Part shown: positions 1-62,403 of the stretch, one piece after another
Position numbering within the stretch: the stretch's first letter is position 1
Layout of the letters: each line of letters opens with the position of its first letter
DNA from: an uncultured virus (IMG/VR IMGVR_UViG_3300005264_001596)
Taxonomy: Duplodnaviria; Heunggongvirae; Uroviricota; Caudoviricetes
IMG/VR virus record: IMGVR_UViG_3300005264_001596
Length of the DNA: 64,000 nucleotides
Reading direction: 5' to 3' (one strand)
Translations under genes and position numbers: made by a program
The notes under the pieces: model-generated
Databases searched by the model: none
Told to the model about the DNA's origin: nothing
What the model saw: only the letters and a program-made list of their open reading frames with translations

Positions 1-414
1 ATGGCATCATTATCTGAATGGATATTAAATTTATTTAAGAACGATGAATTAGAAGATACAATACCAGAAGGTTATTTTAAATTTAAAATAATAAAAACAA
101 CTGATGCAAAATATCTTGGAATTACATTTATTGCAGAAGAAATAACAAAAGAAACATTATTTGATGCATTGAATGAAGATTCTGAACAAGATATACAATT
201 ATTTAATGCAAAAATATCAGAACTTAGAACTAATACACAATTAACAGATGAAGAGGTATATTTAAAAGCGGAAACATGGGTTAGAAACAAAAAAGATAAT
301 AATATTTTCGATAATACTGAAATAGATAGAATATCCCAAAATGGTGATATTTTTAAAGTAATTATAGGAAATTATATTATGGTTATTAAACGTATTTTTG
401 TACAAACAAATTAA
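1..414 (+). CDS. hypothetical protein
   Basis: 137-aa ORF at the window edge; no motif recognised. Confidence 0.55.
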   Translation: MASLSEWILNLFKNDELEDTIPEGYFKFKIIKTTDAKYLGITFIAEEITKETLFDALNEDSEQDIQLFNAKISELRTNTQLTDEEVYLKAETWVRNKKDNNIFDNTEIDRISQNGDIFKVIIGNYIMVIKRIFVQTN

Positions 415-438
415 ATTAAATATAAGGAGGAATAAATA

Positions 439-1836: not shown

Positions 1837-1844
1837 TAGAAATT

Positions 1845-1870
1845 ATAGTAGTCAACTTTTTGACTACTAT
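1845..1870 (+). terminator. intrinsic terminator
   Basis: ATAGTAGTCAA/TTGACTACTAT stem followed by a T-rich tract. Confidence 0.8.
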
Positions 1871-1897
1871 TTTCTTTTGCTGTAAGGAGGGTTAAAT

Positions 1898-4615
1898 ATG
1901 TCTAATCAAACAATATCCACAAGTATGACTATGGAGGAGTGTATATCTTTAGGTCTACTCAGTGGTGAAAATATAACAATAAATGGTGGGGCGGTGCTTA
2001 CTTGCACAGAAACCCCATCTGTATTAATAGGTTCTGTAACTATTAACTATGGAGAGTTACACATTGATGGACAGAATATAACAAACGGAAATGTGGTTAA
2101 CTTTGTTGGTGAAGGTGGACTGATAAATGGTTCAAATGACCAAACTATAATTGTTAATGGACAGGGTAAATTAAATATTACAGGTGCCTGGTTTGATATA
2201 GGCATAACTGATGGAACTGATAATCAAGTAATTGACTTATCAACTGCTACAGGAGTTGGATATTGGAATAAAGATGGTGTTGACTTCTGTGTTGACGTTA
2301 TTCCTATGATACAAATCGAAACAGGTAGAAGAATTGATTTTGATAATTATACTGGCACTATCCCTAGTGTTGGTGATTGGATATATAAAACTTCTGATAA
2401 GGGAGTCATGGGAAAAATAAAAGAGGTTGGAACTGATTATTTAATAGTTTGGTCACTAACAGGAACTTTATTAGATAATGACCCCATTCACTGTCAAAAA
2501 GTAGTAGATAATTTTGGTCCAGATATGCAAATATCATGGACTGCTTTAGTTAACAATGTTAATGGTGATATCAAAGCCGATGGTGTTTATATGGAATTTG
2601 GTAATGCTAGAAGTAACGGTAATAATTATATATCAGACTTTGGTAATGGTTTAGGCGGTTTAGTATTCCATCACGCTTTTAAATCAACTGATTTAACATT
2701 AGGTAGTAATACAGGAAGTGGCTTTGGCGGGTTCAAACCTCCAAGTGGATGTAAAATTAGAGTACCTAATGTTATAATTAACACTTCTAGTTTAGTTGGC
2801 GAAGGTGGAAGTGGTACTCCTTATGCTGATGGTGATGCTTTTGGTTGTGGCACAAACGATAACGAAACGGAATTGTTTGCTATCGAATGTTCAGCTGGTG
2901 GTGATATATTCATGAGTACTTGTAATTGGGGAAACGCTTACTCAGCTGACTCTGGTGCAAGTAAATATGAAGTTGAATATGTAGGATTTACTGTGGGTTT
3001 TGGAGTTAGTGTTTGTGGTAGTAAATCATTAATTAGACATGCTGTAGTCTGCCAAGCACCTGAAGTCAACGCCGCAGGAGTGAATATTTTTGGGAACGTA
3101 TTAGACACGGTTAATGGAGCAGACGTTAGTTTTAGTATGACTATAAATGCAAGATTAAGTGTTTCAGGTGTTTTTGGTGCTTCAACATCATTTAACGTAT
3201 CTATTAGTAATTGTATTTATTCAATGGCAGGAGCTGGTACAACACAAAAAGTAGGAGGTAAGGGCTACTCCTTTATTACAGTTACAAATGGAAATGTTGA
3301 TAATTGTTTATATTTTGGAGCAGAACCAGACTCTGTAATGGGAAACGCTGTGTCAATTGCCACAAGTAAAGATATATCTATTTCAAATATGAAATTAAGT
3401 GCAACTCAAAATTATATTAGCCAAACAAGAGATTTAGATTTATTTAGATTAAATAACTCAAATAATATTAAAATAGTAGGAATCGATCAAATAGGTGGTG
3501 GTTCACCTGGTGGTAACTTTATTGCTATGACAGATGCCGCTGACATAAAAATTAGAGCAATTGGTATGATTGATGATAGAATTGACTTAGGCTCTCACGG
3601 TAAAGCTGGTGTTGAAGTGTCTGGATTAGGTTCTAACACTGATATTGCTAGATGTTGGTTCGATAAGTCAACAACTGTAGTAGAGGAGTTTATAACCGTC
3701 ATAGTTACAGCTAAAAATACAATGGTGCAAAACTGTGCTAGTAAATATTTAGCAGAGGTTCAAATATCAGGTACAGATACTAAATTTAAAGGTATTAGTG
3801 GTGGTGGTGGTGCAGTAAGTTCAGCAACAGGTTGGGAAGATGCTTTAGTAGGCTCATATGGTAGAAGTATACATGACGCCTTTGAGAGTGATACAGCAGG
3901 TGCATTAGCTTGTGTTATGATTACACCAAGTACAGATATTAATGACACTAATATAATAGCTGGTAATCCATTGTTTTATAAAGATGGTGACTTAGATATG
4001 GTTAGTGGCGATATAATAGAATTTGAACAAGGATACTTTATGAAAGGTCACACAGGTTTCACAGGTGGCTATACAGCGGCTACAGGTTCAGCTTCAAGAG
4101 GTGCTAATGAGTGGTCAAAAGTAATACTTGAGTTTCAATATATGTTTAAAGGTGGTTCATGGAATGGTAGCTGGTTAGACGTTAGAACACCATCGAATTT
4201 AACAGGGATATCTGGCGATATTGCTGGTGGTATTAAGTTTAAATTTAGATTTACTGCAACAGGAACACAAAATAGTATGTCTATGTTGTTAATAGATACC
4301 ACTACTTCGTTAACTGCTCAAAGGGAAAATTTTTATCCTATTGACCAAGTTGAATCACATTTGACAATTACAGGATTAAAAGAAGGTACTGAAGTTAGAG
4401 TGTATCGTGCTAGTGATGGCGTGGAAATCATGGGTGTCGAAAATAGTGGTACAACTTTTACTGGAACTTATTCATATATAGAAGATTTTAATGTTACTAT
4501 TAGAATTGCAAGTTTGGAATACGTAATGATTTCCATGAATGAAATTACATTAACTGCGAATGATATAACTATTCCAGTACAACAACAAAAAGATAGATGG
4601 TATCTTAATAATTAG
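1898..4615 (+). CDS. putative tail spike / receptor-binding protein with right-handed beta-helix-like region
   Basis: 905 aa, G/S/N/T-rich, with repeated V/I-x-I-x-N-C patterns (e.g. VSISNC, GNVDNC, TMVQNC); short C-terminal beta module (LTITGLKEGTEVRVY). Confidence 0.55.
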   Translation: MSNQTISTSMTMEECISLGLLSGENITINGGAVLTCTETPSVLIGSVTINYGELHIDGQNITNGNVVNFVGEGGLINGSNDQTIIVNGQGKLNITGAWFDIGITDGTDNQVIDLSTATGVGYWNKDGVDFCVDVIPMIQIETGRRIDFDNYTGTIPSVGDWIYKTSDKGVMGKIKEVGTDYLIVWSLTGTLLDNDPIHCQKVVDNFGPDMQISWTALVNNVNGDIKADGVYMEFGNARSNGNNYISDFGNGLGGLVFHHAFKSTDLTLGSNTGSGFGGFKPPSGCKIRVPNVIINTSSLVGEGGSGTPYADGDAFGCGTNDNETELFAIECSAGGDIFMSTCNWGNAYSADSGASKYEVEYVGFTVGFGVSVCGSKSLIRHAVVCQAPEVNAAGVNIFGNVLDTVNGADVSFSMTINARLSVSGVFGASTSFNVSISNCIYSMAGAGTTQKVGGKGYSFITVTNGNVDNCLYFGAEPDSVMGNAVSIATSKDISISNMKLSATQNYISQTRDLDLFRLNNSNNIKIVGIDQIGGGSPGGNFIAMTDAADIKIRAIGMIDDRIDLGSHGKAGVEVSGLGSNTDIARCWFDKSTTVVEEFITVIVTAKNTMVQNCASKYLAEVQISGTDTKFKGISGGGGAVSSATGWEDALVGSYGRSIHDAFESDTAGALACVMITPSTDINDTNIIAGNPLFYKDGDLDMVSGDIIEFEQGYFMKGHTGFTGGYTAATGSASRGANEWSKVILEFQYMFKGGSWNGSWLDVRTPSNLTGISGDIAGGIKFKFRFTATGTQNSMSMLLIDTTTSLTAQRENFYPIDQVESHLTITGLKEGTEVRVYRASDGVEIMGVENSGTTFTGTYSYIEDFNVTIRIASLEYVMISMNEITLTANDITIPVQQQKDRWYLNN

Positions 4616-16945: not shown

Positions 16946-18154
16946 TTGATGAAAGAGATAAAACGAAATTCTGATTTACTTAAGCTTATTAGATTAGATC
17001 CACACGAATTAACTATAAGTTTAATTAAAGAATTAATAACAAGTAAATTAGTAAACGGAGAAGTGGTTGAACCTAAATATAATTTATCTGATTTTTTCTT
17101 ATTAAAGAAAAATGATTGTTGTAATAATACAAAAGATGTTATAACCTCTATAGGAATTTTAATAATGAATAAATGGTTTATTGAACCTTATCTATCTGAC
17201 TTAATAAAATATCAAAATAAAAGATTTGATAAGAAAATGTTTAAAATATTGGATAATATTGTATCATCCAATTTTCTTAACGGTAAATTAGAGTTTGAAG
17301 CTTATGAATATCATCTTAATGCCTCACAAACACAAGGTCAATTAGGTGAAATTGTATCACCATCATATTCAACAGGAACTCTAACATTACCACCAAAATC
17401 AGCAAAATTAAAAAAAGACCTTATTAAAGAAAATAAGAAAGCTTTAGATAATGGTAATGTAACGGTTTCTAATATGATTAGAGATAAAGTTATTGATTCT
17501 GTGAAAGAAGAATTAAAAGACGATCCAGGATTAGATAATTATACGTCTGGATCTAAAGCATCTTTCAATAGCACTTATGCTGTAATGAACATTATGCAAG
17601 GTGCAGTTGAAAAATCTGACGGTGATGGTTATAAAATTATAACTAATTCTTATGATGAAGGAATTAAAAAGGAAGATTATGTTGCATTAGCAAACTCTGC
17701 AGTTACTGGAATCAAATCTAGAGCTTTAGATGTTGCTGTTGGTGGAACTATACAAAGAAAAATTATGTCAATGACACAAGAATCAGTATTTGCAGGTGAG
17801 AATACTGATTGTGGAACAGAAAAAACAATTAGCATTGTATTAAGAAAACCTTCTGATTATTTATATCGAAATATAAAGGTTGGAGATAAAGTAGTAAATT
17901 TAACTCCAGATATTATAAAAAAATATGAAGGAAAAACTGTTAATATGTATTCTCCAATATTTTGTAAATCACCAGAACCTACATTTTGTGAAAAATGTAC
18001 TGGTAGACATCCAGCTATAATGGATATTAAAAAAATTGGATTATTAGCTCAAGGTGCAGGTTCTGCATTACTAAATTCTAATTTAAAAGCTTTTCACGAT
18101 TCATCAGTTGTAACAAATAAAATTGATCCTAAAAAATTATTATTAGATGAGTAG
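16946..18154 (+). CDS. rpoC: RNA polymerase beta' subunit, C-terminal part (probably virion RNAP)
   Basis: SGSKAS (SGARG), ITNSYDEG (SNFREGL), bridge helix A...GIKSRALDVAVGG, DCGT, YSPIFC...FCEKCTG; lies in a structural operon. Confidence 0.85.
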   Translation: MMKEIKRNSDLLKLIRLDPHELTISLIKELITSKLVNGEVVEPKYNLSDFFLLKKNDCCNNTKDVITSIGILIMNKWFIEPYLSDLIKYQNKRFDKKMFKILDNIVSSNFLNGKLEFEAYEYHLNASQTQGQLGEIVSPSYSTGTLTLPPKSAKLKKDLIKENKKALDNGNVTVSNMIRDKVIDSVKEELKDDPGLDNYTSGSKASFNSTYAVMNIMQGAVEKSDGDGYKIITNSYDEGIKKEDYVALANSAVTGIKSRALDVAVGGTIQRKIMSMTQESVFAGENTDCGTEKTISIVLRKPSDYLYRNIKVGDKVVNLTPDIIKKYEGKTVNMYSPIFCKSPEPTFCEKCTGRHPAIMDIKKIGLLAQGAGSALLNSNLKAFHDSSVVTNKIDPKKLLLDE

Positions 18155-19028: not shown

Positions 19029-20576
19029 ATGTATAAAGTATCTAAAATGAAAGACAACAGTTTTTTAGAATCAATTGTAAAAGATTTTAAATTAGACAAT
19101 GAGTTTTCAACTCCTAGAATTAAATCTGTTAAATTAAAAAAAATAAATATTGATGAGCATGCTGAAAAATTAAAAGAAAAATATATAGGTTTTGATGTAG
19201 ATTCTTTGGATATAAAAAATATTGATAATGAGAAAGGTTTGTATTCTACTAAATTTGGTATTAGTGGTTTTGGGAAAAGAAAAAATAAAAGTATTTCAGC
19301 ATATACCTGTTTATGTGGTAATTTAACAGGTGAAATACATCAAGGTGAAATTTGTGATATATGTGAATCAAAAGTTACAAATAATTCTGATTTACGAAAA
19401 ACAGGAGTAATAAAATTAAATGAAGCTATTATATCACCTGCTTGTTTTTCTGACTTTGAAGGTCTTATTGGTAAAACTGAGTTTGCTAAAATAATTAAAT
19501 TTGATGATGTATATAATGTGAATGGTCAGTTAGTACAGAAAGATAAAAAAAATCCATTTCATGGAATAGGTTTAACAAATTTTATTGATAACTATGAAGA
19601 GGTTATAGAATATTATTTAAAAAAGAAAAAGAATAGAAAAGAATATTATTATATAATTAAAGATAATGAAGATGCATTATTTACAAACTCTATTTTAGTT
19701 TATTCCTATTTGTTAAGACCTAATATTGAAAGTAGAGAATCTGATACAATAAATCATAGTAGACGATTATTTAAATCAAATAAAAATTATGAGACTATAT
19801 TAAAATCAATAAAAGAATTAGAAACTATTAGTAATATTTATGGTATGAGAAAAATTCATGAAGTTTTATTATTAGATATTCAAAAAGCTTATAATGAAAT
19901 ATATGATTATTTAGTTAAAGAATGGAAAGGTAAAAAAGGATTATTCAGAGGTCAAATGACATCTACACAATTAGATTATACTGCTAGAATGGTTATAACA
20001 CCTGATAATACTCTTAGTGTTGATGAAGTTAGTATGCCATATATAGTATTATTAAAATTCTTTGATTTACAAATATTATCTATACTACAACAAACAGATA
20101 ATATTTCATTAGCAGAAGCCCAAGATATATTATTTAAAGCTAGTATAAATTATGATAATAGAATTAAATTAATAATTGATCATATTATAGAAAACTCAGA
20201 ATATCACCCTAGAGTATTAGTCAATAGACCACCTTCACTTAATCCTGAATCTATACGTCTATGTAAGATTATACCTAAAGGTGACATAGAAGATTTAACA
20301 ATGGGCATACCTACAGCTACACTTTCAGGGTTTGCTGGAGATTATGATGGAGATTCATTACTTGCAATAATGATTCATTTTAAATCATTGATGGATGCAT
20401 TTAAAATATTAGATCCTTCACATCAATTAATCAGTAGAGTTACTGGAATGTATTCACATGATTATTTATTTATTAAAGATATGGCTGTTGGATTAACTAT
20501 GTTTTATGAAAATTCAAAAGGTATTGAATATTATAAAAATCATATGGATGAAATTGTTGATGATGAAATGTATTAA
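19029..20576 (+). CDS. rpoC: RNA polymerase beta' subunit, N-terminal part with catalytic motif (probably non-virion RNAP)
   Basis: Zn finger CLCG...CDIC, GKKGLFRG, DYTARMVITP, VNRPPSL, catalytic AGDYDGD. Confidence 0.9.
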   Translation: MYKVSKMKDNSFLESIVKDFKLDNEFSTPRIKSVKLKKINIDEHAEKLKEKYIGFDVDSLDIKNIDNEKGLYSTKFGISGFGKRKNKSISAYTCLCGNLTGEIHQGEICDICESKVTNNSDLRKTGVIKLNEAIISPACFSDFEGLIGKTEFAKIIKFDDVYNVNGQLVQKDKKNPFHGIGLTNFIDNYEEVIEYYLKKKKNRKEYYYIIKDNEDALFTNSILVYSYLLRPNIESRESDTINHSRRLFKSNKNYETILKSIKELETISNIYGMRKIHEVLLLDIQKAYNEIYDYLVKEWKGKKGLFRGQMTSTQLDYTARMVITPDNTLSVDEVSMPYIVLLKFFDLQILSILQQTDNISLAEAQDILFKASINYDNRIKLIIDHIIENSEYHPRVLVNRPPSLNPESIRLCKIIPKGDIEDLTMGIPTATLSGFAGDYDGDSLLAIMIHFKSLMDAFKILDPSHQLISRVTGMYSHDYLFIKDMAVGLTMFYENSKGIEYYKNHMDEIVDDEMY

Positions 20577-24553: not shown

Positions 24554-26266
24554 TTGAAAAAATTTAATTTAGAAATAATGAAATATGCATCACAGAAAAA
24601 TAATTCTGAAAAGAATTTTTACTCTAAGATTGTAAATAGTAATATTACTGAAGCAATCTCAAGAAAGTCTATAAATCATCAAGATAGTGTACATTTATAT
24701 AATAAAATTGATGAATTGTATGACACCATTACACCAATGAAAAATATAATTCAAAATTTTGATTTGTATGAATCAGTTATTTGGAAATATTTTAATACTT
24801 TATTTCCAATAATAACAGTATTGAATATTACAAATGAAGATAATATGCCATTTGTAAGTACTGATGCTGTTGGTATAATAGTTGAAACAAAGAAAGATAT
24901 ATATTTATTAAATATACCATTCAATAAATGGCATAAGCTTATATTATCAAATAATAAAATTATATACACTACTACGTTGGAAATTGTTATTCATTCGTTA
25001 CAAAAATTTATAAAGAAAGATATACTATCTATAACACCATTCAAAATTATTAGAAAAGAAATAGAGATAGAATCTCAAACTAATAATATTTTGGAAACTG
25101 TAAAAGAATCAATAAAGAAACGACGAGTTGCAAAAGAAATTGCTATTCAAGTTTTCACAAAGTATAGTAATACTAATTCAAAAATCTTTAAGAAAATTAA
25201 AGATTGGAAACGCCTGAATCTATTCAAGATGAACTATGATTATTCACTTGGATATTCAGATAAAGTTCTAGGAGATAAACTCACACTTGGTTATGAAACC
25301 ACAAAAAGTGAGGTATCTGAAGAGAAGGATATTTTTAAATATCTCCTAGAACAAAAAGAAATACTTATTCATCGACCTTATCAAAAGTTTATTACACCTA
25401 AGGTTATTGAACAAGCTGCTAATGATCCTAACGTCATTAGTATAAAACAGTCTTTATACAGAGTTTCTAAAGATAGTAAAATTATCAAAGCTCTTATTAA
25501 AGCTGCAAAAAATGGAAAGGATGTTTTCTTAGTAATTGAACCAAGAGCAAGGTTCGATGAAGAGAATAATATCAAAGTGATAGAAACTCTTAGAAAATAT
25601 GGAGTTTCAGTTATACCAGGTATCATTAAATATAAAACTCATGCTAAGTTGTTGCAAATAACTAGTATAAAAAAAGGAAAGATATCAATATTAACAAATA
25701 TTTCAACTGGTAATTTTAATGAGAATACTGCAAAAACATATGAGGACTTTGACTTATTTACTAATTGTAATTTAGTCGGTCAAGAAGTTGCAAAGCTATT
25801 TGCTAGAATTGCTGGTATGAATATATCTTTTCAAGAGAATTATATAATTTCATCTCCAAATTCACAAAATAAAATTATTAATCTTATTAATAATTCTTCT
25901 AAGAAAATTGTTATCAAAGTAAATCATATTGGTGATAAAGAGATTATTTTAGCATTAGAAAATGCTAAGAAACGTGGAGTTGAAGTAATATTAATAGTTA
26001 GAACAACTAATGATATGGGTGATGGTATAATGGTGGTTGGTGATTATCTTGAACATAGTCGAATTTTCGTATTTGATGATATAATATATCTAGGTTCATC
26101 AGATTTACTATATCGAAATACACGAAGAAGATTTGAAGTAATTGTTGAGGTAAAAGAAGAAATAAATAAAAATAGAATAAAAGATTTATTAGCAATATAT
26201 CAAAATAATAAAAAATTTGATATACAAAAAAGAGTAAGTGATTATTACTTACAAAAAATAAAATAG
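24554..26266 (+). CDS. ppk1: polyphosphate kinase 1 (compact and divergent)
   Basis: LIHRPY, IKQSLYR, ARFDEENNI, KTHAK (phospho-His motif), STGNFN..TA..YED, KVN, LEHSRIF, SSDL..RN..RR.E; TTG start after AAGGAG. Confidence 0.9.
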   Translation: MKKFNLEIMKYASQKNNSEKNFYSKIVNSNITEAISRKSINHQDSVHLYNKIDELYDTITPMKNIIQNFDLYESVIWKYFNTLFPIITVLNITNEDNMPFVSTDAVGIIVETKKDIYLLNIPFNKWHKLILSNNKIIYTTTLEIVIHSLQKFIKKDILSITPFKIIRKEIEIESQTNNILETVKESIKKRRVAKEIAIQVFTKYSNTNSKIFKKIKDWKRLNLFKMNYDYSLGYSDKVLGDKLTLGYETTKSEVSEEKDIFKYLLEQKEILIHRPYQKFITPKVIEQAANDPNVISIKQSLYRVSKDSKIIKALIKAAKNGKDVFLVIEPRARFDEENNIKVIETLRKYGVSVIPGIIKYKTHAKLLQITSIKKGKISILTNISTGNFNENTAKTYEDFDLFTNCNLVGQEVAKLFARIAGMNISFQENYIISSPNSQNKIINLINNSSKKIVIKVNHIGDKEIILALENAKKRGVEVILIVRTTNDMGDGIMVVGDYLEHSRIFVFDDIIYLGSSDLLYRNTRRRFEVIVEVKEEINKNRIKDLLAIYQNNKKFDIQKRVSDYYLQKIK

Positions 26267-35852: not shown

Positions 35853-38800
35853 ATGCCAAAAAAGAAGAATAAAAGAGAATATAAAGCAAGTGATATTGTT
35901 GTTATTTATGAAGATCGAGAACGAGTTAGACAGAGTTCCCATGTTTATGGTAGACGTGGATTAGGTGGTATAAAACATTTATTCACAGAATCTTTTGATA
36001 ATGCTATTGATGAGCATATTGTTACTGGTACACCAATATATGTTAGATTTAATGAGATAACTAAAGAAATTACTGTATCAGATAATGGTGGAGGAATACC
36101 TCATGAAAAATTAAGAGAATTAGCAGAGGTAATGAACTCTAGTGGTAAATATAATAATACTACTAAAAATGGTTCTGCTTATGTAACATCAGTTGGTCAA
36201 AATGGTATGGGTATGAAAGTTATAAACTTTTTATCAGACCATATGACATTAAGTTCTAAACGTGATGGTAAAGAGTTAAGTGCTAATTATATTGATGGTA
36301 AATTTGTAAAAAGTACTACAAAAAAATGTCCAAAAAAAGAACATGGTACAACAATAACATTTAGACCATCAGATAAATATTTTGATAATAAAGTTAAGAA
36401 ACTTACAATAAAACATCTGACTGATTTAATAGAAAAAAGATTATACGTAACAGGACCACAATTAAAGGTCTATGTTAATCATGTAAAACCAAATGGAAAA
36501 GAATCTGCAAAAATATATTCAGGTTACTCATTAGAAAAATATGTAACAAAATTATCTAAAAATAAATCTGCAAAAATATTTAATCTACAACTTAAAGGTG
36601 CTTCTGATGATTCTAATTTTCAAAAAGGTGAAGTTGTTTTTCAAATGAATGAAAATGGTACTAAAGAAAATATTGAGGGATATGCAAATACTCTTTATAC
36701 TAAAGATGGTGGAACCCATATAAATTCTGTAAGAAATGCTATAACTGATTTCTTTAGAAAAGAAACTAATAATAGAATGTCCCAACTTGAGAGTAAGCAT
36801 ATTAATATTAAAGCTGATGATGTTAGAAGTCTCATTGTTGCAGTAATATCAGTTAGATTAGTATCTCCTGAGTTTAAAGGACAAACCAAAGATGAATTAG
36901 AATCTAATATAGAAAAAGATCTTACTTCTTTAATAATTAAAGAATTGAAAAAATCTTTAAATGATAAAGAAATAAATAATATATGTAACATGATTAAACT
37001 TAATGCTAGAGCTAGAATTGAATCAACTAAAATTATCAAAAGAGTTAAGAAAGCTGATAGCATTAGTAAATTTTCAAAGAATAATATATCTAATTATATT
37101 CGTATATCTAAAGGTAGTAAATCTAAATTCACTGAGATATTTTTAACTGAAGGATTATCAGCTGGAGCTTCAATGGATAAAGCACGAGATGCTGATAGTC
37201 AAGCAATATATCAAATTCAAGGAAAACCAGTTAACTTTTTAAAGAAAAAGAAAATTCAAATTGTAAATAATAAATTAGTTCAAGAATTAAGTAAAATTTA
37301 TGGTATAGAACCATTCAGTGAAGACTTACCAGTATTTGATAGAATTAATATAGCAACAGATGCTGATATTGATGGTGACCACATGGGTGCTTCTCTTATG
37401 GTATTACATTATATAGTATTTCCAGGAGTTATTAAAAATCATATTCTTTATAAAATAAAATTACCTTTATATAAAATTGATAAGAAAAATCCAATTTATT
37501 TAATTAATGATGATGAACTTTCACATTATATAGGAAAAGAATTTATGAAAAAGAATTTGTTATATTTTAATAAATCAAAATTTAGTAAATCTGCCACAAT
37601 TAAATTTATTAATTCAAATATAAATTATACAAATTTAATAGACAAAGTAGCTAAAAAACATGCATCAGTTCCAGAAGTAATAGAACTAATTGCTTTTTGT
37701 TTGCATAATTATAAAGAAGATATACCTAAATGGAAAAAGGAATTTAAACCTAGATATCCTTATATAAATATTACAAATACTAAAAGTGGTATAGAAGTTG
37801 ATGGTATTGATAGTGCAACAAAAAATTATCAAATTATATTAGTGAATAAGAAATTTAAAAAAGATATAGAGCATATTATAGAAGTTATTATTGATAATTA
37901 TAATAAGATATTCGGTTATAAGATTAATAAAGACGGTGAAGATATATCTTTATATAAAGTAAACAAAAAAATAGCTAATACAATTGGTTCAGGTAATAAG
38001 GTTCGATTTAAAGGGTTATTGTAATAGCTCTTGACTTTTTAATTGCGGGGAACTGCTAACTAGATTAGCGGGATGAATAATCCTCTTTATAGGTCTTAAC
38101 TACTAACTTATCATAGTGATATAGATAAGGGCAAGGAGTAATTTCCAAGGTATAGTAAAAATGTTAAGAATAAAGACAATCCGCAGCCAAGTTACTTATT
38201 ATAATAAGTAAAAGGTTCAACGACTATCCCTTTCGAGGGAGTACAGAACAAGCTAAGGTTCTGGAAATGGAAGACCTATCGTAAGATAGAAGATATAGTC
38301 TAGCCTACATTGAGAATTGTAGAAGTTCATAAGAGAACTGCATTAGTAGTTGCGTACTAATGTGAATATATGCGTGGGTTTGTAAAATTGCCCATGACTT
38401 TTTAATTGCGGGGAACTGCTAACTAGATTAGCGGGAATTATATTCCTCTTTATAAGTCTTAACTACTAAACTATCATAGTAATATAGATAGTGGCAAGGA
38501 GTAACTTCCAAGGTATAGTAAAAAGGTTAAGAATAAAGACAATCCGCAGCCAAGCTTCTTATATAGAAGAAGGTTCAACGACTATCCCTTTCGAGGGAGT
38601 ACAACTCAAGCTAATGGAGTTGGAAATAGAAGACCACTTAATTAAGTGAAGATATAGTCTAGTCTGCATTGAGAAATGTAGAAGTTCATAAGAGAACTGC
38701 ATAAAGATTTGCGTCCTATATGTGAATGAATACGGAGATGGAGTCTGTAGATTTCCATAATACATCAATATTAAGAGAAAATAGAACATCTATCAAAATA

Positions 38801-38926
38801 CGATTAATGGATATTGAAAAAGCTAGAAATAGTATTAATTTACTTCATGGAGATAGTTGTCCATTGAAACAAGAATTTTTCCTTGAAGCATTAAAGACTT
38901 TTGATATAACACAAATAGATACTTAA
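35853..38926 (+). CDS. gyrB: type IIA topoisomerase subunit B, spliced: join(35853..38016,38375..38379,38735..38926), 786 aa
   Basis: ESFDNAIDE, DNGGGIP, GQNGMG, FKGQTK, TEGLSA, TDADIDGDH; splicing restores RFKGLGEM. Confidence 0.92.
38017..38374 (+). mobile_element. group I intron 1 in gyrB (358 nt, no ORF, IA-like)
   Basis: P AATTGCGGGGAA, Q AATCCGCAGC, R GTTCAACGACTA, S AAGATATAGTCT; exon AAGGGT pairs with IGS GCTCTT with a U.G pair at the splice site; ends in G. Confidence 0.92.
38375..38379 (+). other. gyrB: 5-nt micro-exon of gyrB (TGGGT)
   Basis: Needed to give GGG T|TG GGT|GAG ATG = G L G E M; pairs with the intron 2 IGS GCCCA. Confidence 0.88.
38380..38734 (+). mobile_element. group I intron 2 in gyrB (355 nt, no ORF)
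   Basis: Same P/Q/R/S elements; P1 TGGGT:GCCCA; terminal G followed by GAG ATG. Confidence 0.92.
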
Positions 38927-39191: not shown

Positions 39192-39791
39192 ATGAAATTA
39201 GATGATAAAAGAAGTTTTATTATAAGTAATAAAACTGGTAAAATTATTTCTAAAAAGAAATTAAGAAATACTAAATACCTAAAAAGTCTTAAAAATGATG
39301 ATAGTTATAAAGTATTTGCACATTTATCTAATGGTGTATATAAAACAATAACAATTAAATCATTACTTAAATTAATGAGATTGCGTAGTATAACAATTGA
39401 AAGACATTTTCAAATGGAAGATTATGATGAAGACGGTGAATTTATATGGAATTCTGTAATTTATCAAAAAACAGAATATGATACTATAGAATCATTACTT
39501 AGTTTTTATATTAGTGATACAATAGAAGTAGATTTTTGGAAACAGATTCAAACTTATGATAATATAAATGTAGAATATTTAGATTTTAAGATTAAGTATG
39601 AGAATGGTAAAAAACAAAAAATATATCATATGGAATTTAATGAAGATATTTTTAAATCTGAAAAAGAACCGTTATGTCTTAAATATTTCGGACATTTAAA
39701 ACCATATTATGGAGATTTAGATTTAAAAGCACGAGACGAAATGGATACATCATGGAAAAAAGTAAAAATGATATTTTCTGATGGAAAATAA
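39192..39791 (+). CDS. hypothetical protein
   Basis: GAGGAGG RBS. Confidence 0.65.
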   Translation: MKLDDKRSFIISNKTGKIISKKKLRNTKYLKSLKNDDSYKVFAHLSNGVYKTITIKSLLKLMRLRSITIERHFQMEDYDEDGEFIWNSVIYQKTEYDTIESLLSFYISDTIEVDFWKQIQTYDNINVEYLDFKIKYENGKKQKIYHMEFNEDIFKSEKEPLCLKYFGHLKPYYGDLDLKARDEMDTSWKKVKMIFSDGK

Positions 39792-39799
39792 ATAGAGGA

Positions 39800-40408
39800 G
39801 TGTATAAAAAAATGAATGATAAAAAAATTAAAGATGGTGTTTTAGGCGAATCTGTATTAGATGATACATCAATAATAACAGAATCAACATGTATTTTAAC
39901 TAATACTAAATCAACACAGCCAATGGAAAAAATAGCTGACACTAATTTAGTAAAAATATATGGGCTATATCCTCATCCAGTAACATTTATTCAACCAAAC
40001 ATAAAAGAAATAAAATTATCATCTGGAGTAGATTTAAAACTTTTACCAAATACAATATTCGTTACTGAGGAAATAAATATTCATGATAATAATTTAGAAC
40101 CTATTTTTAGAATAGCTGGTGGTATTCATTCTATGAATGGTGAAATAATATTCAATATCTCTGTTTTAAATTCAAATTATGGTTATATCCTGATAGATCC
40201 TAATTATGATCAAAATGAAATTAATGAATATTTAAAATCTGAATTTAAATATTTAGATATAGAAAATAATATAGCTATGTTTAAAAAGAAAAGAAATGAA
40301 AAAGGTGATGTTATTGATATAGATAAAAATAGTTATATGATTATATCACAACATAAAATTGCTTTATTTGGATATGTATTAAATACACCTAAAATTACAA
40401 TTATATAA
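39800..40408 (+). CDS. hypothetical protein
   Basis: GAGGAG RBS (true start may be ATG 39812); terminator at 40413-40434. Confidence 0.6.
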   Translation: MYKKMNDKKIKDGVLGESVLDDTSIITESTCILTNTKSTQPMEKIADTNLVKIYGLYPHPVTFIQPNIKEIKLSSGVDLKLLPNTIFVTEEINIHDNNLEPIFRIAGGIHSMNGEIIFNISVLNSNYGYILIDPNYDQNEINEYLKSEFKYLDIENNIAMFKKKRNEKGDVIDIDKNSYMIISQHKIALFGYVLNTPKITII

Positions 40409-40464
40409 TAATATAGCGGATATAATTCCGCTATTTTTTTTAACTTAAATAAGGAGCTTATATT

Positions 40465-40992
40465 ATGAAAAAATATAAAATTGGATTTCCAGTATTAATT
40501 AAAAATAAAATAGTTGATGATGCAATCATTGAAGTTTTAGATGATAGTAATATAATTACTTCAATTATTAGTGAAAAAAATAAAAGTATTTATAAAGAAG
40601 GACTTGATACAATTGTTGGAATGAATGCTTATAATTGTTTTATTCCTATTGAACCAACAGATGATATGCCTAATTGTTTAACTATTGGATACATAGAAAT
40701 AACTGATAGTGTGTATGGTTATGATTATAATGTAGCTAAAGTTAAAAATCTTAATAAACCATTAATTAAAATTACAGAGTTATCTGATGGTGATGTTTTT
40801 ATTGATGAAAAACGTTATTTCATTGGAGATTTATCAATAAATAAAATAGGTAATATTTTAGATATTTTTAAAGATATTACAAATGTTTCTGGTAAATCAT
40901 TAATCTCAAATTATGATAATATTAAAATTAAAAATATTGTTAACTCCAATACTAAATATTATAGAAAAATAATATTAAATAATCCTTTATAA
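40465..40992 (+). CDS. hypothetical protein
   Basis: AAGGAG RBS. Confidence 0.6.
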   Translation: MKKYKIGFPVLIKNKIVDDAIIEVLDDSNIITSIISEKNKSIYKEGLDTIVGMNAYNCFIPIEPTDDMPNCLTIGYIEITDSVYGYDYNVAKVKNLNKPLIKITELSDGDVFIDEKRYFIGDLSINKIGNILDIFKDITNVSGKSLISNYDNIKIKNIVNSNTKYYRKIILNNPL

Positions 40993-41075
40993 TTTTATGT
41001 AATGTATTAAACATATAAATGATTGAAGTATATATTATAAAATTAGAAGAATATATAGGAAGGGGATATAATATT

Positions 41076-43502
41076 TTGGCAAAGAAAATAAAAAAATCAT
41101 TAGTTAAAAAGAAACAAGAGGGATTTGTATTTAGATTTAAGCCACGTATTAATGGCAAAATAGAAAATATTGAGGTAGTATCAATTGAAAACTTTAATGA
41201 AGAATCTATGAGTAGATATGGTACAAATGTTTTATCATATCGAATGTTACCAGATTTAAGAGATGGGATAAAACCTATAAATCGAAGATTATTATATACA
41301 TCATATTTTGTAGCTTATAATAGAAGAGTAAAATCAAATGCTGTAATAGGTGAATTATTAGCAAAATGGCATCCACATGGTGACCAAGCAGCATACAGTT
41401 CAATGGTAAACATGTCACAAGAATGGAGAGGAATGCCTCTAATATATGGGAAAGGAAACTTTGGTTCAATTAAAAATCCTAAGTCTCATGCCGCAATGAG
41501 ATATACTGAAGTATTATTATCAGATTTTTCTAAAGATTGTTTCTTTGGAGATTTCCTTGAAAAAAATGATACTACTATAGTTGATTTCATTCCAAACTTT
41601 GATGATAATGCATTAGAGCCATTTTATCTTCCAGCTAGATATCCGAACTTTTTAACTAATTGGAATACTGGTATTGCAATAGGGTTTAGTCATACAAGTG
41701 CAGGATTTACATTTAAAGATGCATTAGAAACAACTATTAAACTTATTAAGGAAGGTCCTAATGCAGAGGTTAATATAAATATATCTGATCCTCAAGGTTG
41801 CGATATACTTGCAGAACGAGGAATGAAAAATAAGTTTTTTGATGCACCAAATTATTCTGTAAGAGTACGAGCATTATATAAAGTTAAAGAAGTAGGTAAT
41901 GGTAAACATTCATTAGTTATAACTGCATTACCTTATGAAACTTCATCAAAAGCTGTAGATGATCAAATAGGAAAATTAATAGATAATAAACTTATTAATT
42001 ACGTTGATGACAGTCAAGCTATAATAAAAAACTTTAAAGATTTAGAATACTCAATCTATTTAAATAAAGGATATGATCCTCATACATGTATGGAAGATTT
42101 ATATAAGAGGACAAATCTAGAAAAAACATTTTCATCTAAATTATTATATATTAATTCAGATTTAAATTCTTTAGATTTAAGAAATTATGTAACTCATAGA
42201 AATGCATTAAATGCTTGGATTGATTATAGACGGGAACAAGTTCAAAGAAGAACAAAACTTAAAAGAGCTAAGTTATCAAAAGAAATTCATATTAGAGAAG
42301 GATTACTTAAAATAATTAATATGAATAAAGTTGAAGAATTTATTAAGATAGTTAAAACCAATAAAAATAAAGAATCTCAACTTAAACTAATTAAGAAATT
42401 TAAATTATCTGATTTACAAGCTGAATATTTAGTTAATATTAGAATTGGTTTATTATCTATAGACCATAGAGATAAATATATTAAAGAAATTAAAGAAATG
42501 CAAGCAGAAATTAAAATTTTGATTGATATTATTCATTCTTCTAAAAAGATTGATAAGATTATAATATCTGAATTAGAATATGGTATTAAAAAATATGCAA
42601 AAGATGAAAAAATATCTAAGATTCATATGCTTGGTGGAGCAATAGAAAAAACTTCTTCTACATCAGTTGAGTTTACTAGAAACCACATGTTGAAGTACCT
42701 ACCAGATGACAATATTAAAACATTGAACGATGATCATCCATTCTTTAAATCAATTGTACCAAATACTTTTATTTTAGTATATGGAAGAAATGGTAAATTT
42801 ATTAATATTGATTTAACTAAACTTAAGATATCAAAAAACAATTCAGTAGGTTACGAGATATCCTCATTAGGTTTAAATTCTGAGGCTATTGGTATTGTAC
42901 CTGATAATAGTAATGGTAGTATTATTATGATTACTAGAAATGGTATTATACAAAGAAGCGATATTGATTCATATAAATCATCTAAAACAGGTTCTGCTAT
43001 TAAGTTAAATGATGATGATGAACTTGTTGGTGCAACTTTTGTATCAAAGAAAGATGCTGTAATAATTTATACAAATTTAGGAAATGCATTAATGCTTAAA
43101 ACTAAAGATATAACTAAAACTAATAGAAATACAAAAGGTGTATCTGGAATTAAATTAAAGAAAGATGAATATTGTGTTGGTATTAGTAGCATATTATATG
43201 GTGATTCACAAATTGTAACTATAACCGATAGAGGATATGCTAAAAGATTTGATATAATTACTTTACCTAAATCAATTAGAGGTAAAAAAGGATTTGGTAT
43301 AATGTCTCCTGATGAAGTAGGTAATCTTGTTAGTGTTATTAGCGTAAATAAAGATGATAAACTTAAATTATATACATCATTTAATAATGAGGACATTGAG
43401 ATACGAACTTCAGAAATTCCAAAAAAGACAAGAATATCAAAAGGTAAGAAAATTGTAAAAATGCCTAAGCATATTAAAATAATTGATGCAGAAGTATTTT
43501 AA
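41076..43502 (+). CDS. gyrA: type IIA topoisomerase subunit A
   Basis: LPDLRDGIKP, HPHGD, GNFGS, catalytic AAMRYTE, beta-pinwheel CTD; TTG start after GGAAGGGG, downstream of the early motif at 41025. Confidence 0.92.
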   Translation: MAKKIKKSLVKKKQEGFVFRFKPRINGKIENIEVVSIENFNEESMSRYGTNVLSYRMLPDLRDGIKPINRRLLYTSYFVAYNRRVKSNAVIGELLAKWHPHGDQAAYSSMVNMSQEWRGMPLIYGKGNFGSIKNPKSHAAMRYTEVLLSDFSKDCFFGDFLEKNDTTIVDFIPNFDDNALEPFYLPARYPNFLTNWNTGIAIGFSHTSAGFTFKDALETTIKLIKEGPNAEVNINISDPQGCDILAERGMKNKFFDAPNYSVRVRALYKVKEVGNGKHSLVITALPYETSSKAVDDQIGKLIDNKLINYVDDSQAIIKNFKDLEYSIYLNKGYDPHTCMEDLYKRTNLEKTFSSKLLYINSDLNSLDLRNYVTHRNALNAWIDYRREQVQRRTKLKRAKLSKEIHIREGLLKIINMNKVEEFIKIVKTNKNKESQLKLIKKFKLSDLQAEYLVNIRIGLLSIDHRDKYIKEIKEMQAEIKILIDIIHSSKKIDKIIISELEYGIKKYAKDEKISKIHMLGGAIEKTSSTSVEFTRNHMLKYLPDDNIKTLNDDHPFFKSIVPNTFILVYGRNGKFINIDLTKLKISKNNSVGYEISSLGLNSEAIGIVPDNSNGSIIMITRNGIIQRSDIDSYKSSKTGSAIKLNDDDELVGATFVSKKDAVIIYTNLGNALMLKTKDITKTNRNTKGVSGIKLKKDEYCVGISSILYGDSQIVTITDRGYAKRFDIITLPKSIRGKKGFGIMSPDEVGNLVSVISVNKDDKLKLYTSFNNEDIEIRTSEIPKKTRISKGKKIVKMPKHIKIIDAEVF

Positions 43503-51213: not shown

Positions 51214-51975
51214 ATGACATTTGAAGAAAAAAAACAAGAATTTATAGAATATTTGATTGGAGTTATTGAAACTCTTGAAGGAGGTAAAAATAAAAAGAAT
51301 GCAACTCATTTGAGAGAAAAATTTGAATCAATGAATGAACAAAAATTTATTAATTATTTTAGAAAATTCTTTAAAGATGAAGATATGAATTTAACCCTTA
51401 ATGTTGAACCAGGTGAAGATAATTTATGTATGAAAGATATAATAAAAGCTGCTAAAAAGGCAGATGTTGAATTATTTGATAATATTGCATTACCATATTT
51501 ATCTAAAGATGCTAATAATCCTATAATAACACAAAATAAAATTATGACTGGATACATTAATGGTCGACGTCTACAACAAAGGGTTAGAAAGAAAAACTCT
51601 ACATCTATATCAATTTCTAAGAGAGATCCTAGATATAATCAGGTAACAGGTGAAGATAAGATTGGTCGTATTACAGATTGGGAAACAAGAGCTTTAGAAG
51701 TGCAAGGTGCTAAAAGTGCATTAAAAGAATTCTTTGGTCCACGTTCAGATGATTCTGTATCAAAAGAACAAATGTATCAAAGTATAATTGAAAAAGGTAC
51801 AGTTAGTTTGAAAGATTTAGATATAAGTAAATTTAATAAACAGTCATTAATTACAGCAAATGATTTTTTTATTGCTGCTATGGTTGGTAATGATTTACTT
51901 ACTAGAGAATATTTATTACCAAGAACTTTAAAATATGGTAAAAAGGATGCAACTGGATTGAAACGTGGTAAGTAA
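51214..51975 (+). CDS. rpoB: RNA polymerase beta subunit, short C-terminal fragment (probably virion RNAP)
   Basis: GYINGRRLQQRVRKK, NQVTG, GRITDWETRAL, ALKEFFGPRSDD...MY..I align with the RpoB C-terminus; AACA motif at 51188. Confidence 0.8.
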   Translation: MTFEEKKQEFIEYLIGVIETLEGGKNKKNATHLREKFESMNEQKFINYFRKFFKDEDMNLTLNVEPGEDNLCMKDIIKAAKKADVELFDNIALPYLSKDANNPIITQNKIMTGYINGRRLQQRVRKKNSTSISISKRDPRYNQVTGEDKIGRITDWETRALEVQGAKSALKEFFGPRSDDSVSKEQMYQSIIEKGTVSLKDLDISKFNKQSLITANDFFIAAMVGNDLLTREYLLPRTLKYGKKDATGLKRGK

Positions 51976-55263: not shown

Positions 55264-56349
55264 ATGAAAGATTTAATGACTAATACATTAGTATTAGGAT
55301 TAGGTCAAGCAGGCGGTAATGTAACAAGTCTTGCATATGAAAGAAATATTTTAACAGCAGCAATTAATACATCACAAAAAGATCTATATGAAACAAATGC
55401 TCATATCAAAATTCATATGAGTGATATTGATGGTTCAGGTAAAGATAGAGATTTTTCGTTCGAGATGTTTAAAGAAAATTATCAATCTCTTTTACAACCA
55501 ATATTTGATTTAATTGATTCCAATGATATTAATAATATTGCAATTGTTGCATCTGGAACAGGTGGAACAGGTTCAGGAATCTTTGCACCAGTATTAGCAT
55601 TTTTAAATAATAAATATGGTGATAAACTTATTTATGGCGTAGCCATTTTAGGTTCAATTAAAGAAGATTACTTAGCTCAGTCAAATGCAAAAGAATTTTT
55701 AAAAGAAGTTGACGAAAAACTCAGTGTTCCTTATATGATTTTCGATAATGACTCTGTAGAAGGTAATGTTCATGAGGTTTACAAAACAATTAATAATGAT
55801 ATCATCAATAAAATATGTGTTATTGATGGTTACATGTATGATGCATCTGATATAGCTAATATCGATAATAGTGACAAAACTAGATTGTATAAATCTGGAA
55901 GATTTTTAATATCTACAATTGATAATATAAGTACATCTTTAACTAATGATATTGATGCTGAAGATAATATCATTTCATCTATAAGAAAAAGTCATCAAAC
56001 TGATATTGGTGAATTTGTAGACACATATGGAATTTATATTAATTCAAATGATTTAAATAAATTTGATTATAATTTTGTAAAATTACAAAATGAATTTGGT
56101 CAATCAGTAACGATGTTTAAACACATTCAATTGTATAATGGTAAATCTCCAGAAATTGCTGTTATTATGACAGGACTAGAATCTCCAGTTGATAGATTTA
56201 ATCTTATTGATAGAAGAATGTCTGAATATGAATCAAAAGAACGAAGAGCATTACCAAATTCAAATAAAATGAGTATTCCATTTGGTGAAAGAGTTGCAGT
56301 TGAAAAAATTAATGATGATGATGATTTGCTTGGATTATTTACAAGATAA
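55264..56349 (+). CDS. tubulin/FtsZ-family GTPase (TubZ/PhuZ-like)
   Basis: GLGQAGGN, AINTS..D, GSGKD, SGTGGTGSG signature, FDN, IDNSD. Confidence 0.9.
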   Translation: MKDLMTNTLVLGLGQAGGNVTSLAYERNILTAAINTSQKDLYETNAHIKIHMSDIDGSGKDRDFSFEMFKENYQSLLQPIFDLIDSNDINNIAIVASGTGGTGSGIFAPVLAFLNNKYGDKLIYGVAILGSIKEDYLAQSNAKEFLKEVDEKLSVPYMIFDNDSVEGNVHEVYKTINNDIINKICVIDGYMYDASDIANIDNSDKTRLYKSGRFLISTIDNISTSLTNDIDAEDNIISSIRKSHQTDIGEFVDTYGIYINSNDLNKFDYNFVKLQNEFGQSVTMFKHIQLYNGKSPEIAVIMTGLESPVDRFNLIDRRMSEYESKERRALPNSNKMSIPFGERVAVEKINDDDDLLGLFTR

Positions 56350-59926: not shown

Positions 59927-62403
59927 ATGAGCAATAATTTGAAAAAAGAGTTTAAAAAGATTAATAAGAAGTATGATGATTTAGATAAAGCCCATGCATC
60001 TGGTCTAATGACAATGGCAGCACATATTTCAGCAAATAGACTTATGATGTTTTTCTCTAATTTAACCCAATATAATCAAATTGACAATCCAGAACCACCA
60101 TTATTAACAACTGGATATGAAAATCCATTAGCACTATATAGTAAATTATCATATAACCAAATTGAAAATAAGGTTATAGTTGTAGGGAAAATAATAAAAA
60201 ATAAATACAATTATACACTTATTACTTATGATAAGAAAAAAGATTTGTATGATATTGTTGAAAGACATGAAGCAGAAGATCTTGGTGAAAGTTATGGTTT
60301 TAAAATAAATAATGAAACTATAGACTCTTATAATATCGGAAATACAATAAAGAAAGATACAGTATTATGGAAATCAAGTGGTTATGATGATTATATGAAT
60401 TATGGCTATGGAAAGAATTTAAACACTATGTATTCTATAAATTTAAATAATCTTGAAGATGCTATAACTACAACTGATGATATTGGTTTAGATACTAATA
60501 AAGTTAAAACTATTGAAGTTATTATTTCTGATAATACTGGTCCATTAAATTTATATGGAGATAATAAACAATTTAAAGTATTTCCTGAAGTTGGAGAAAC
60601 TGTTAATGATTGTATATTATGTGCAACTAGACTTAGAAATGAAAAATCAGATTTATTTAATTTCACAAATGATAAATTAAGAAAGTTAATTTCAGGTGAT
60701 ACAACATATGTTACTCATGGTAATTATAAAGTTATTGATATTGATATTCTTACAAATAATCCTATTGATGATTTACCTAATACAAAATCATATCAACAAA
60801 TAAAACGAGTGTATTCAGAAATTATAGAATATCGAAAAAAGATTCATAAAGAATTAGATATAATTATAAACTCTGGCTCAGATTATACAAGTAGATTATC
60901 ATTTCTTTATAAAAGAATAAATGATTTATTAGATGATAGAATTAAAATAGAAGTTAATAATAAAATATTCTCAAAATTTATTATTAATTTTACCGTGATG
61001 CATAAAGATACACCTAAATTAGGAAGTAAGATAGTGGGTAGATCTGGAAATAAAGGAATCATTGGTACCATTAGAAATAAAAAAGAAGCATCATATTATA
61101 TTGATGAAAAAGGTGAAGAACAAAAAGTTCAAATAATTTTAGATGGATTAGGTATATTAGCAAGACTTGCATTAATGCAAAGTTATGAAGTTGAAGTTAA
61201 TTGGATGGTTGGTCAAGCATTAGATCGAGTATGGGATGATAGAAAAAAATTTATGAAAACTTGTTTTGATTTATTAAATATACTTAATCCTTCAGAAGCT
61301 GAAGCATTAGAAAATGATTATATGAATTTAGATAAATCAGGTAAAAAATATATTTATAAATCTATTCAGGAACATGGATTACCTATATTTGTTAAACCGT
61401 CTGAAGGCATTGGAGATAAACGATATGAAGAATTAATTGATTATGTGAAACCTAAGAAATATAAAATTTATAAATATGATACAAATGGAAAGAAAATTTA
61501 TTATAAAAGACCAATGATAGTTGGAAAACAGTATGTAATGATTTTAAAACATACTCCATTATCTAAATTTAGTGTCAGAAGTAGAGGTGCAGTGAATCCA
61601 CGTTCAGGAACACCTACTAGAAGTAATGCTTTTCTTAAAAATAGAGCTTTATATTCTGATACCTCATCTCGACTTGGTGAATTTTTGCCAACGACTTTTT
61701 AATTGCGGGGAACTGCTAACTAGATTAGCGGGATGAATAATCCTCTCTACTTTAGGATACAGATACTAAACTATCATAGTAATATAGATAGTGGCGAAGG
61801 GTAACTCCTTAGGTATAGTAAAAATTCTGTATATAGAGACAATCCGCATCCAAGCTTCTCAAAGAGAAGAAGGTTCAACGACTATCCCTTTCGGGGGAGT
61901 ACAGAACAAGCTAAGGTTCTGGAAAAGGAAGACCTATCATAAGATAGAAGATATAGTCTATTCTGCATCGAGAGATGTAGCAGTTCATAAGAGAACGATA
62001 TAAAGAGTTGCGTCTTTATATGAATATAAAGGAAATGGAACTTGGAATTTTACTAATAAATAATCAACCAAAAGCTGTTAAATTCTTAATGAGTATTTAT
62101 GCAAATTCAACAGAGAGCCGAAGACGTTTTGCTCATTGGTTATATGATAATCCTTTTTCAAGTGGTACAAATTATTCTGAAAAAGGTTTTAGAAATAAAC
62201 CAGTTGATATTATGAATAATCAAATGAATTCAATAGGATTAAATTTAAATATGGTTTATGAAAGTCCTAAATCATATGCTAAACGAATTAACAAAAATGG
62301 TGATAATATGGAAGATGCTATTAATAATGATTTAAATAAAGTTAAAAATATTAATGAACTATCATTTTTATTAAAAAGAGAAATTAATAAATCAGGCAAA
62401 TAG
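59927..62403 (+). CDS. rpoB: RNA polymerase beta subunit, C-terminal half (probably non-virion RNAP), spliced: join(59927..61678,62032..62403), 707 aa
   Basis: SANRLMMF..N..Q, TGYE, YGKN, NLEDA, GSKIVGRSGNKGII, GKQYVMILKH; splicing restores RLGEME. Confidence 0.9.
61679..62031 (+). mobile_element. group I intron 3 in the RNAP beta gene (353 nt, no functional ORF)
   Basis: Same core as the gyrB introns; P1 TTGGT:GCCAA with a U.G pair; terminal G before GAA ATG GAA. Confidence 0.92.

Follow-up and report, generated by a model that had tools for sequence, protein, structure and literature searches.

The locus described here lies in a 64-kb stretch of DNA (hereafter the window; G+C content 24.7 %) from an uncultured virus of the Caudoviricetes found in marine sediment (IMG/VR record IMGVR_UViG_3300005264_001596), and the protein cluster of the window sits on one contig of 80,543 bases. 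A gyrB-like gene, encoding the B subunit of a putative type IIA topoisomerase, opens at position 35853, and its unspliced reading ends in ..RFKGLL* with a stop at 38022-38024. Beyond exon 1 lie two group I introns, separated by a micro-exon of five nucleotides (nt), after which the frame of the gene resumes. Neither intron carries an open reading frame (ORF) of its own. The elements of the locus, including identity to the closest homologue, here called P0002, are the following:

35853..38016, plus strand: exon 1, gyrB-like, from the ORF list; Pfam HATPase_c, DNA_gyraseB and Toprim; 48 % identity to P0002.
38011..38016, plus strand: 5' strand of the P1 helix of intron 1, AAGGGT; 6/6 pairs with 38027-38032; U38016 is the 5' splice-site U.
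38017..38374, plus strand: group I intron 1, 358 nt, ORF-less; ends in ..ATGCG with G38374 as last base; RF00028; 0 broken pairs in the structure model.
38027..38032, plus strand: internal guide sequence of intron 1, GCTCTT, which pairs with AAGGGT.
38375..38379, plus strand: micro-exon TGGGT, 5 nt; 3' exon of intron 1 and P1 substrate of intron 2.
38380..38734, plus strand: group I intron 2, 355 nt, ORF-less; ends in ..ATACG with G38734 as last base; RF00028; structure model.
38390..38396, plus strand: internal guide sequence of intron 2, of which GCCCA (38390-38394) pairs with the micro-exon, as judged from duplex energies and pair probabilities in the precursor.
38735..38926, plus strand: exon 3, starting GAG ATG; the last 63 codons (EMESVD...QIDT) and the stop at 38924-38926; C-terminal GyrB domain.

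The borders of both introns can be placed to the base. Exon 1 ends in ..AAA GGG T at 38016, and T38016 together with the micro-exon TGGGT supplies the Leu and Gly codons of the conserved KGLGEM motif. Both insertion sites follow GGGT, five bases apart, inside the codons of this motif, and both splice sites show the U.G wobble (U38016.G38027 and U38379.G38390), with a terminal G in each intron. Shifting either border pair by a single base would lose the terminal G or create a stop, and the borders are therefore unique. The original prediction, which was made from the letters alone, had read here a gyrB frame running into a stop, two complete group I cores separated only by TGGGT, and a matched P1 for each intron (AAGGGT with GCTCTT and TGGGT with GCCCA), and it had named a search with group I intron models as a check. 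Both P1 pairings stand, and the search returned Rfam RF00028 at 37999-38322 (55.0 bits, E 3.2e-11) and at 38349-38681 (67.0 bits, E 8.1e-15), both above the gathering score of 50 bits and both over model positions 1-253 of 253. Across the 64-kb window Rfam yielded no match other than these two, even at E<=1. No homing endonuclease was found inside the introns, where the only overlapping ORFs are of 52 amino acids (aa) on the plus strand and 76 aa on the minus strand, and no homing-endonuclease family (HNH, GIY-YIG or LAGLIDADG) was found in the window among 55 ORFs with PHROGs and 43 ORFs with Pfam.

The coding consequences of the arrangement were assessed by computing all five splice forms in silico from the exon and intron coordinates. 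When both introns are removed and the micro-exon is kept, the predicted product is a protein of 786 aa containing ..RFKGLGEMESVD.., which reads RFKGLGEM. Each of the remaining four forms ends in a stop: the unspliced RNA and the RNA from which only intron 2 has been removed both read KGLL*, removal of intron 1 alone yields KGLGL*, and skipping of the micro-exon yields KG*. In the last case exon 1 is joined directly to exon 3 and the reading closes as ..RFKG* after 721 aa, so the arrangement should be viewed as two introns and not as a twintron or composite intron spliced as one unit. The claim that only double splicing with the micro-exon retained would rebuild KGLGEM thus agrees with all five computed products, which add that the C-terminal GyrB domain would be restored as well; sequence and pairing likewise uphold the claim that the same five bases serve intron 1 as its 3' exon and intron 2 as the core of its P1 substrate. 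By its anatomy the gene holds two independent introns with a short exon between them, and retention of that exon is predicted.

The doubly spliced product has the makings of a complete B subunit. On exon 1, Pfam recognizes HATPase_c (1.4e-10), DNA_gyraseB (6.5e-28) and Toprim (2.2e-6), and exon 3 alone matches DNA_gyraseB_C over profile positions 14-61 of 63 with an E of 0.0054, which is under the curated cut-off; since the match is entered only at profile position 14, there is room for the end of exon 1 and the Leu-Gly pair. The GHKL ATPase, transducer (DNA_gyraseB), Toprim and C-terminal GyrB domains follow one another in the order of the GyrB/ParE family, as read from Pfam and from colinearity with P0002. 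A homology search of 5.8 billion proteins returned 41 proteins, with P0002 the closest after the window's own entry and the next best at no more than 30 %. P0002 is an unbroken ORF of 796 aa with 48 % identity over 99 % coverage, carries PF00986 (the C-terminal GyrB domain) and reads ..QFKGLGEMNAVD.., although its empty intron site is seen in protein only. Aligned with the doubly spliced product it gives 789 columns with 375 identities and 8 gaps, in which ..FKGLGEM.. is ungapped and the alignment reaches the last residue. The closest cultured GyrB relatives are those of Bacillus phages AR9 and PBS1 (30 % over 85 % of a 292-aa query), in which the gene is uninterrupted and reads RFKGLGEA. In IMG/VR no relatives of the gene were found with a protein query or with a two-protein alignment, the patterns from the alignment being of low complexity. 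A five-base exon is beyond the reach of protein alignment.

Comparison of the two introns with one another provides a further line of evidence. By straight counting, they are 85 % identical and differ at 60 of 360 alignment columns, made up of 53 substitutions in 353 ungapped columns and 7 gap columns. A model of 108 pairs was assembled in which P1, the hairpins of the P5 extension, P6, P7.1, P7.2, P8, P9 and the 3' domain come from RNAalifold, and P3, P4 and P7 were added manually following the Rfam consensus. The global RNAalifold fold was set aside, as it did not have group I topology, and its local hairpins were retained. For the 3' domain a long-range helix was used instead of two hairpins because all changes then fall in loops, and this choice is provisional. 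Standard pairs fill 216 of the 216 cells of the resulting model. Both partners differ in 12 pairs (one in P1, three in the P5 extension, two in P6a, three in P7.2 and three in P8), a single partner differs in four, where a wobble is gained or lost, and no pair is broken. When partners were slid by 1-3 columns, zero to one double changes were left, and none of 500 shuffles attained the observed values. A group I core running from P3 to P9, with the P3/P7 pseudoknot, can be drawn for both introns, P3, P4 and P7 themselves being supported by the Rfam consensus only. The interval from P7 to the 3' strand of P3 contains two hairpins (alignment columns 218-231 and 235-255), the second of them with three double changes, and P2 is absent. 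Subgroup IA, the type of the phage T4 td and Twort introns, is defined by two additional helices in this interval, P7.1 and P7.2.

Divergence between the two introns is unevenly spread. The differing columns are unpaired in 34 cases and paired in 26, and the catalytic core contains identical runs of 42, 34 and 29 nt. By region, 10 of 14 columns differ in P8, 11 of 20 in P6a, 7 of 21 in P7.2, 7 of 16 in the P1 loop and guide, 3 of the last 7 nt, and 12 of 122 in the P5 extension, whereas the core blocks stand at 0 %. In the light of the pairing model, selection appears to have kept both folds, and both introns look like maintained ribozymes. As a separate observation, P8 of intron 2 is similar to its counterpart in L043, which holds the closest relative of the introns in IMG/VR; together with the uneven divergence, this hints at an exchange of modules within the intron family.

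The tandem arrangement is also visible in sequencing contigs. Two DNA runs were consulted as Logan contigs: a marine-sediment run (X1) that holds 88 % of the sampled words and is possibly the window's own source, and a run from a second study (X2) that holds a small share of the words and does not cover the micro-exon. A separately assembled X1 contig of 82 nt at depth 25 is identical to 38341-38422 (0 differences), comprising 34 nt of the intron 1 tail, TGGGT and 43 nt of the intron 2 head. The long X1 contigs, at depth 34, approach from both sides, one ending 36 nt into intron 1 and the other starting 139 nt before the end of intron 2, and an X2 contig of 151 nt is identical over 37883-38033, crossing the border between exon 1 and intron 1. 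No joint that removes exactly one intron occurs among the listed contigs of X1 and X2. A single contig joins 38086 to 38464 through 17 foreign letters; this does not match the loss of one intron and was taken as a different family member. Within 38022-38724, the summed contig depth in X1 is 54-485 on the introns vs about 34 on the exons. Parts of the introns are matched there by many contigs with other flanks, pieces 90-99 % alike also occur in this sample, and several variants have a phage-like depth of 31-33. This high intron depth, together with the other flanks, indicates that the intron family is abundant in that sediment community. Further copies may perhaps also reside elsewhere in this phage genome.

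Based upon these features, we put at roughly 80 % the probability that the locus holds two related, endonuclease-free group I introns that are inserted in the KGLGEM codons and excised independently with the micro-exon kept, and that the pair is the footprint of a mobile family and not a regulatory device. Several inferences can be made regarding how such an arrangement would function. The guide of each intron would pair with the bases just upstream of it, AAGGGU in the case of intron 1 and the micro-exon UGGGU in the case of intron 2, and the two self-splicing reactions would presumably proceed independently of each other. The 786-aa protein would be made only if both introns leave and the five bases stay, and any other outcome would lead to a stop within two codons of KG. 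Selection would presumably keep both introns working. As for the origin of the pair, the three exon pieces sum exactly to the expected codons and nothing is duplicated. This exact sum excludes a simple tandem DNA duplication, in which exon bases would have been gained or lost. Among the relatives fetched, the two introns are each other's closest, at 85 % vs 72-78 % to IMG/VR loci. The second site may have been colonised by a copy of its neighbor or by a family member that arrived separately, in either case with no endonuclease in sight. Given that no exon bases are duplicated and that both sites share GGGU, we favor guide-directed ectopic insertion, such as reverse splicing, as the route.

A number of observations weigh against this explanation. 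Among the runs listed for 37800-38900 none is recorded as RNA, and both splicing and retention of the micro-exon are in-silico predictions. The 100 % pairing in the structure model is partly circular, as the model was built from the same two introns, and it is the double changes and the slid controls that are informative. The model also departs from the textbook in places: the P5 extension, about 125 nt between the strands of P4, is off standard group I topology in having two small hairpins between P4 and the assigned P5, while P1 abuts P3 directly where P2 is missing. The Rfam alignment of intron 2 placed P1 on the wrong hairpin. P3, P4 and P7 are the same in both introns except for one wobble change, and the minimum-energy fold of the precursor contains 34 pairs between the introns; together these make plausible a hybrid ribozyme that removes 38017-38734 as one piece and leaves the 721-aa KG* product. 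The uneven divergence fits two separately arrived family members as well as it fits a local copy, and the 82-nt contig that bridges the two introns belongs to a run which is possibly the source of the window itself.

One competing explanation is that the assembler duplicated one intron or merged two strain variants with one intron each. The region is indeed repetitive. X1 Logan contigs are interrupted within intron blocks common to both copies, and none of the listed pieces reaches from one end of the region to the other. Against this, introns that differ at 60 of 360 columns are neither a collapsed nor an expanded repeat, and the 82-nt contig, at a depth of 25, joins one specific intron tail through TGGGT to one specific intron head, with no one-intron joint listed. 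The original prediction had held that an assembly duplication of the second intron would overturn it. On the same two grounds this was not borne out, and an artefact is now extremely improbable. Scarcely more credible, and in our view very unlikely, is that the gene is dead or split, either through decay of one intron or through splicing of the pair as a unit, such that only a truncated B subunit of 721-723 aa is made, possibly with a separate C-terminal peptide initiated at the ATG at 38726. This ATG, in frame and inside intron 2, precedes exon 3 by 9 nt and is the start of a 66-aa ORF (38726-38926, plus strand). Split large subunits of topoisomerase do occur in phages, as with g311 and g314 of phiR1-37, which have an HNH gene between them, and T4 gp39/gp60 is another such case; hybrid folding between the intron copies is possible as well. 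Decay is contradicted, however, by the state of both introns, neither of which has any of its 108 pairs broken while 12 pairs are compensated and both exceed the Rfam cut-off. Nor do the exon pieces show damage: the reading frame continues through them, and conservation extends to the final residue. A split version would be without the Leu-Gly of the motif, and reading the sequence revealed no Shine-Dalgarno-like element suitably spaced upstream of 38726.

A more substantial alternative is that splicing is ordered or gated. According to this view, the guide of intron 2 reads through the micro-exon into the tail of intron 1, so that intron 2 must, or preferentially does, leave first, and the pair would then act as an inherent ordering or quality-control mechanism for topoisomerase expression. 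Nearest-neighbour energies speak to some extent in its favor. In the precursor, guide 2 can form 7 bp at -10.9 kcal/mol, with G38374.U38395 and C38373-G38396 added to the pairs with the micro-exon, whereas once intron 1 is lost it retains 5 bp at -7.1 kcal/mol and meets in GGGU of exon 1 a nearly equal decoy (-6.2, calculated), use of which would skip the micro-exon. In the precursor ensemble (781 nt), P1 pair probabilities are 0.71-0.85 for intron 1 and 0.97-1.0 for intron 2, with the two extra pairs themselves at 0.98-1.0. Energies and ensemble jointly provide a modest argument for intron 2 leaving first. The energies nevertheless describe nothing longer than short duplexes. Of the two extra pairs, one is a terminal G.U and one involves G38396, the base with which P3 begins in the 108-pair model. 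A P1 of 5 bp is not unusual among group I introns. For a placozoan micro-exon of 1 nt, intermediates of both orders were found (PMC5436844). Nothing suggests a signal that modulates either ribozyme. We therefore regard ordered or gated splicing as unlikely, and an obligatory order as doubtful to a like degree. It is an equally tentative extension that productive expression would depend on 3'-to-5' removal of the introns, as an order or proofreading rule possibly general to micro-exon intron pairs of phages. The suggestion in the original prediction that the pair acts as an AND-type control on topoisomerase expression found no support, as any gene with two introns needs both removed and neither a riboswitch-like element nor another Rfam family was found. 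Two selfish insertions into a conserved motif are a simpler reading than control.

When examining the surroundings of the gene, it is evident that the window carries the partner subunit as well:

41019..43502, plus strand: gyrA-like partner gene; Pfam DNA_topoisoIV (1.8e-86) and DNA_gyraseA_C; given for context only.

The gap between the gyrB-like and gyrA-like genes holds three ORFs of 199, 202 and 175 aa (39192-40989, plus strand) with no Pfam or PHROG family. PHROGs also identify in the window four ORFs that match split RNA-polymerase families of beta type, a PhuZ-like tubulin, UvsX, DnaB-like and Dda-like helicases, ThyA and DHFR. The four RNA-polymerase ORFs and the tubulin are located at 16946-18151, 19029-20573, 51214-51972, 59927-61699 and 55264-56346, and these matches indicate that the window derives from a jumbo-type phage. 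Amid these genes lies an ORF of 570 aa resembling polyphosphate kinase (24554-26263, plus strand; Pfam PP_kinase_C_1 1.6e-53, PP_kinase_C 2.1e-21 and the PP_kinase middle domain 3.7e-9). In another jumbo phage, Yersinia phage phiR1-37 (L126, 595-4083), g311 and g314 are annotated as topoisomerase II large subunit with the HNH endonuclease g313 between them, a further case of this gene being interrupted by a mobile element, at a site different from the one described here.

The locus should be of interest in several respects. In annotation, the gene is cut short by gene callers at 723 aa, without the C-terminal domain, and genes of this sort in uncultured phages are mistaken for truncated ones. 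For RNA biology, it offers a natural and compact test substrate of about 720 nt in which to ask how near-identical ribozymes five bases apart avoid hybrid formation and exon skipping, and whether a guide that reaches into the tail of the neighboring intron sets the order of splicing. For intron evolution, two related ORF-less introns at GGGT sites with no duplicated exon bases present the pattern expected of guide-directed ectopic insertion.

Several published systems resemble the present one. One is orf142 of Staphylococcus phage Twort, studied by Landthaler and Shub, in which the highly similar introns 2 and 3 flank an exon of 23 nt and skipping of this exon occurs (PMC10136302). Both cases comprise two similar phage group I introns around a short exon of a protein gene, and both raise the same question of inclusion vs skipping. 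They differ in that the exon is 23 nt in Twort and 5 nt here, where the whole micro-exon lies inside the downstream P1, and in that the gene here is a topoisomerase B subunit and its splicing is predicted (PMC10136302). Blastn also aligns the introns of the window, at about 76 %, with those of Staphylococcus phages of the Twort-like and K-like types (181 Staphylococcus records). Other tandem introns have exons 5-7 times longer than this micro-exon, namely those of Coxiella burnetii 23S rRNA (34 nt) and the engineered tandem Tetrahymena introns (24 nt) (PMC10136302). Identical engineered Tetrahymena copies gave both skipping and inclusion, differing P1, P10 and P9 elements suppressed skipping, and a hybrid ribozyme was proposed for skipping between similar tandem introns (PMC10136302). 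Set against that design, the introns of the window have diverged in the P1 loop and guide (7/16) and in the last 7 nt (3/7), but in P8, P6a and P7.2 as well, and from the sequences one cannot tell adaptation apart from ordinary variation within the family.

Outside bacteria and phages, a parallel is found in the placozoan mitochondrial cox1 gene, in which a single-base micro-exon lies between two group IB introns and RNA-seq shows both intermediates (PMC5436844). In both genes, a micro-exon below or near the size of a codon lies between independent group I introns and restores a conserved residue (here, as predicted), and the placozoan arrangement was explained by a second insertion beside the first; the placozoan introns are organellar, unrelated IB introns documented by RNA-seq, whereas those described here are related introns of a phage known from DNA (PMC5436844). 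In fungal mitochondria, side-by-side twintrons consist of adjoining group I modules, in some cases separated by a pseudo-exon or mini-exon (PMC12308204, PMC6279837), and mini-exons of under four codons are said to be regular in mitochondrial genes (PMC10352661). Several of these complexes splice as one unit, which in the present gene would give a stop (PMC12308204, PMC6279837, PMC10352661). Among phages, the Jug group carries 2513 group I introns in 136 of 139 genomes (PMC12880540), and like the phage described here these are large phages whose essential replication genes are broken by small group I introns; the 64-kb window has only two, and the accessible portions of that article do not describe micro-exons or a topoisomerase target (PMC12880540). 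In a literature search that left most subscription journals outside its scope, we found no printed phage micro-exon this short and no group I intron in a phage gyrB.

Dense arrays of such introns are nonetheless common in IMG/VR, where a pattern of the core matches at least 124 loci and an exact 25-mer of the intron matches 0 loci. One contig (L073, ending 3300034096_001425; 126-3152) has six RF00028 matches in 3.1 kb, five of them with their ends 38-162 nt apart, and another (L043, 1-1685) has four in 2.4 kb. The latter is the closest intron relative in IMG/VR (72-78 %), and the exon beside the relative measures tens of bases, with no micro-exon. The gyrB-like gene of this phage is a tight example of a known habit of group I introns and no new kind of system.

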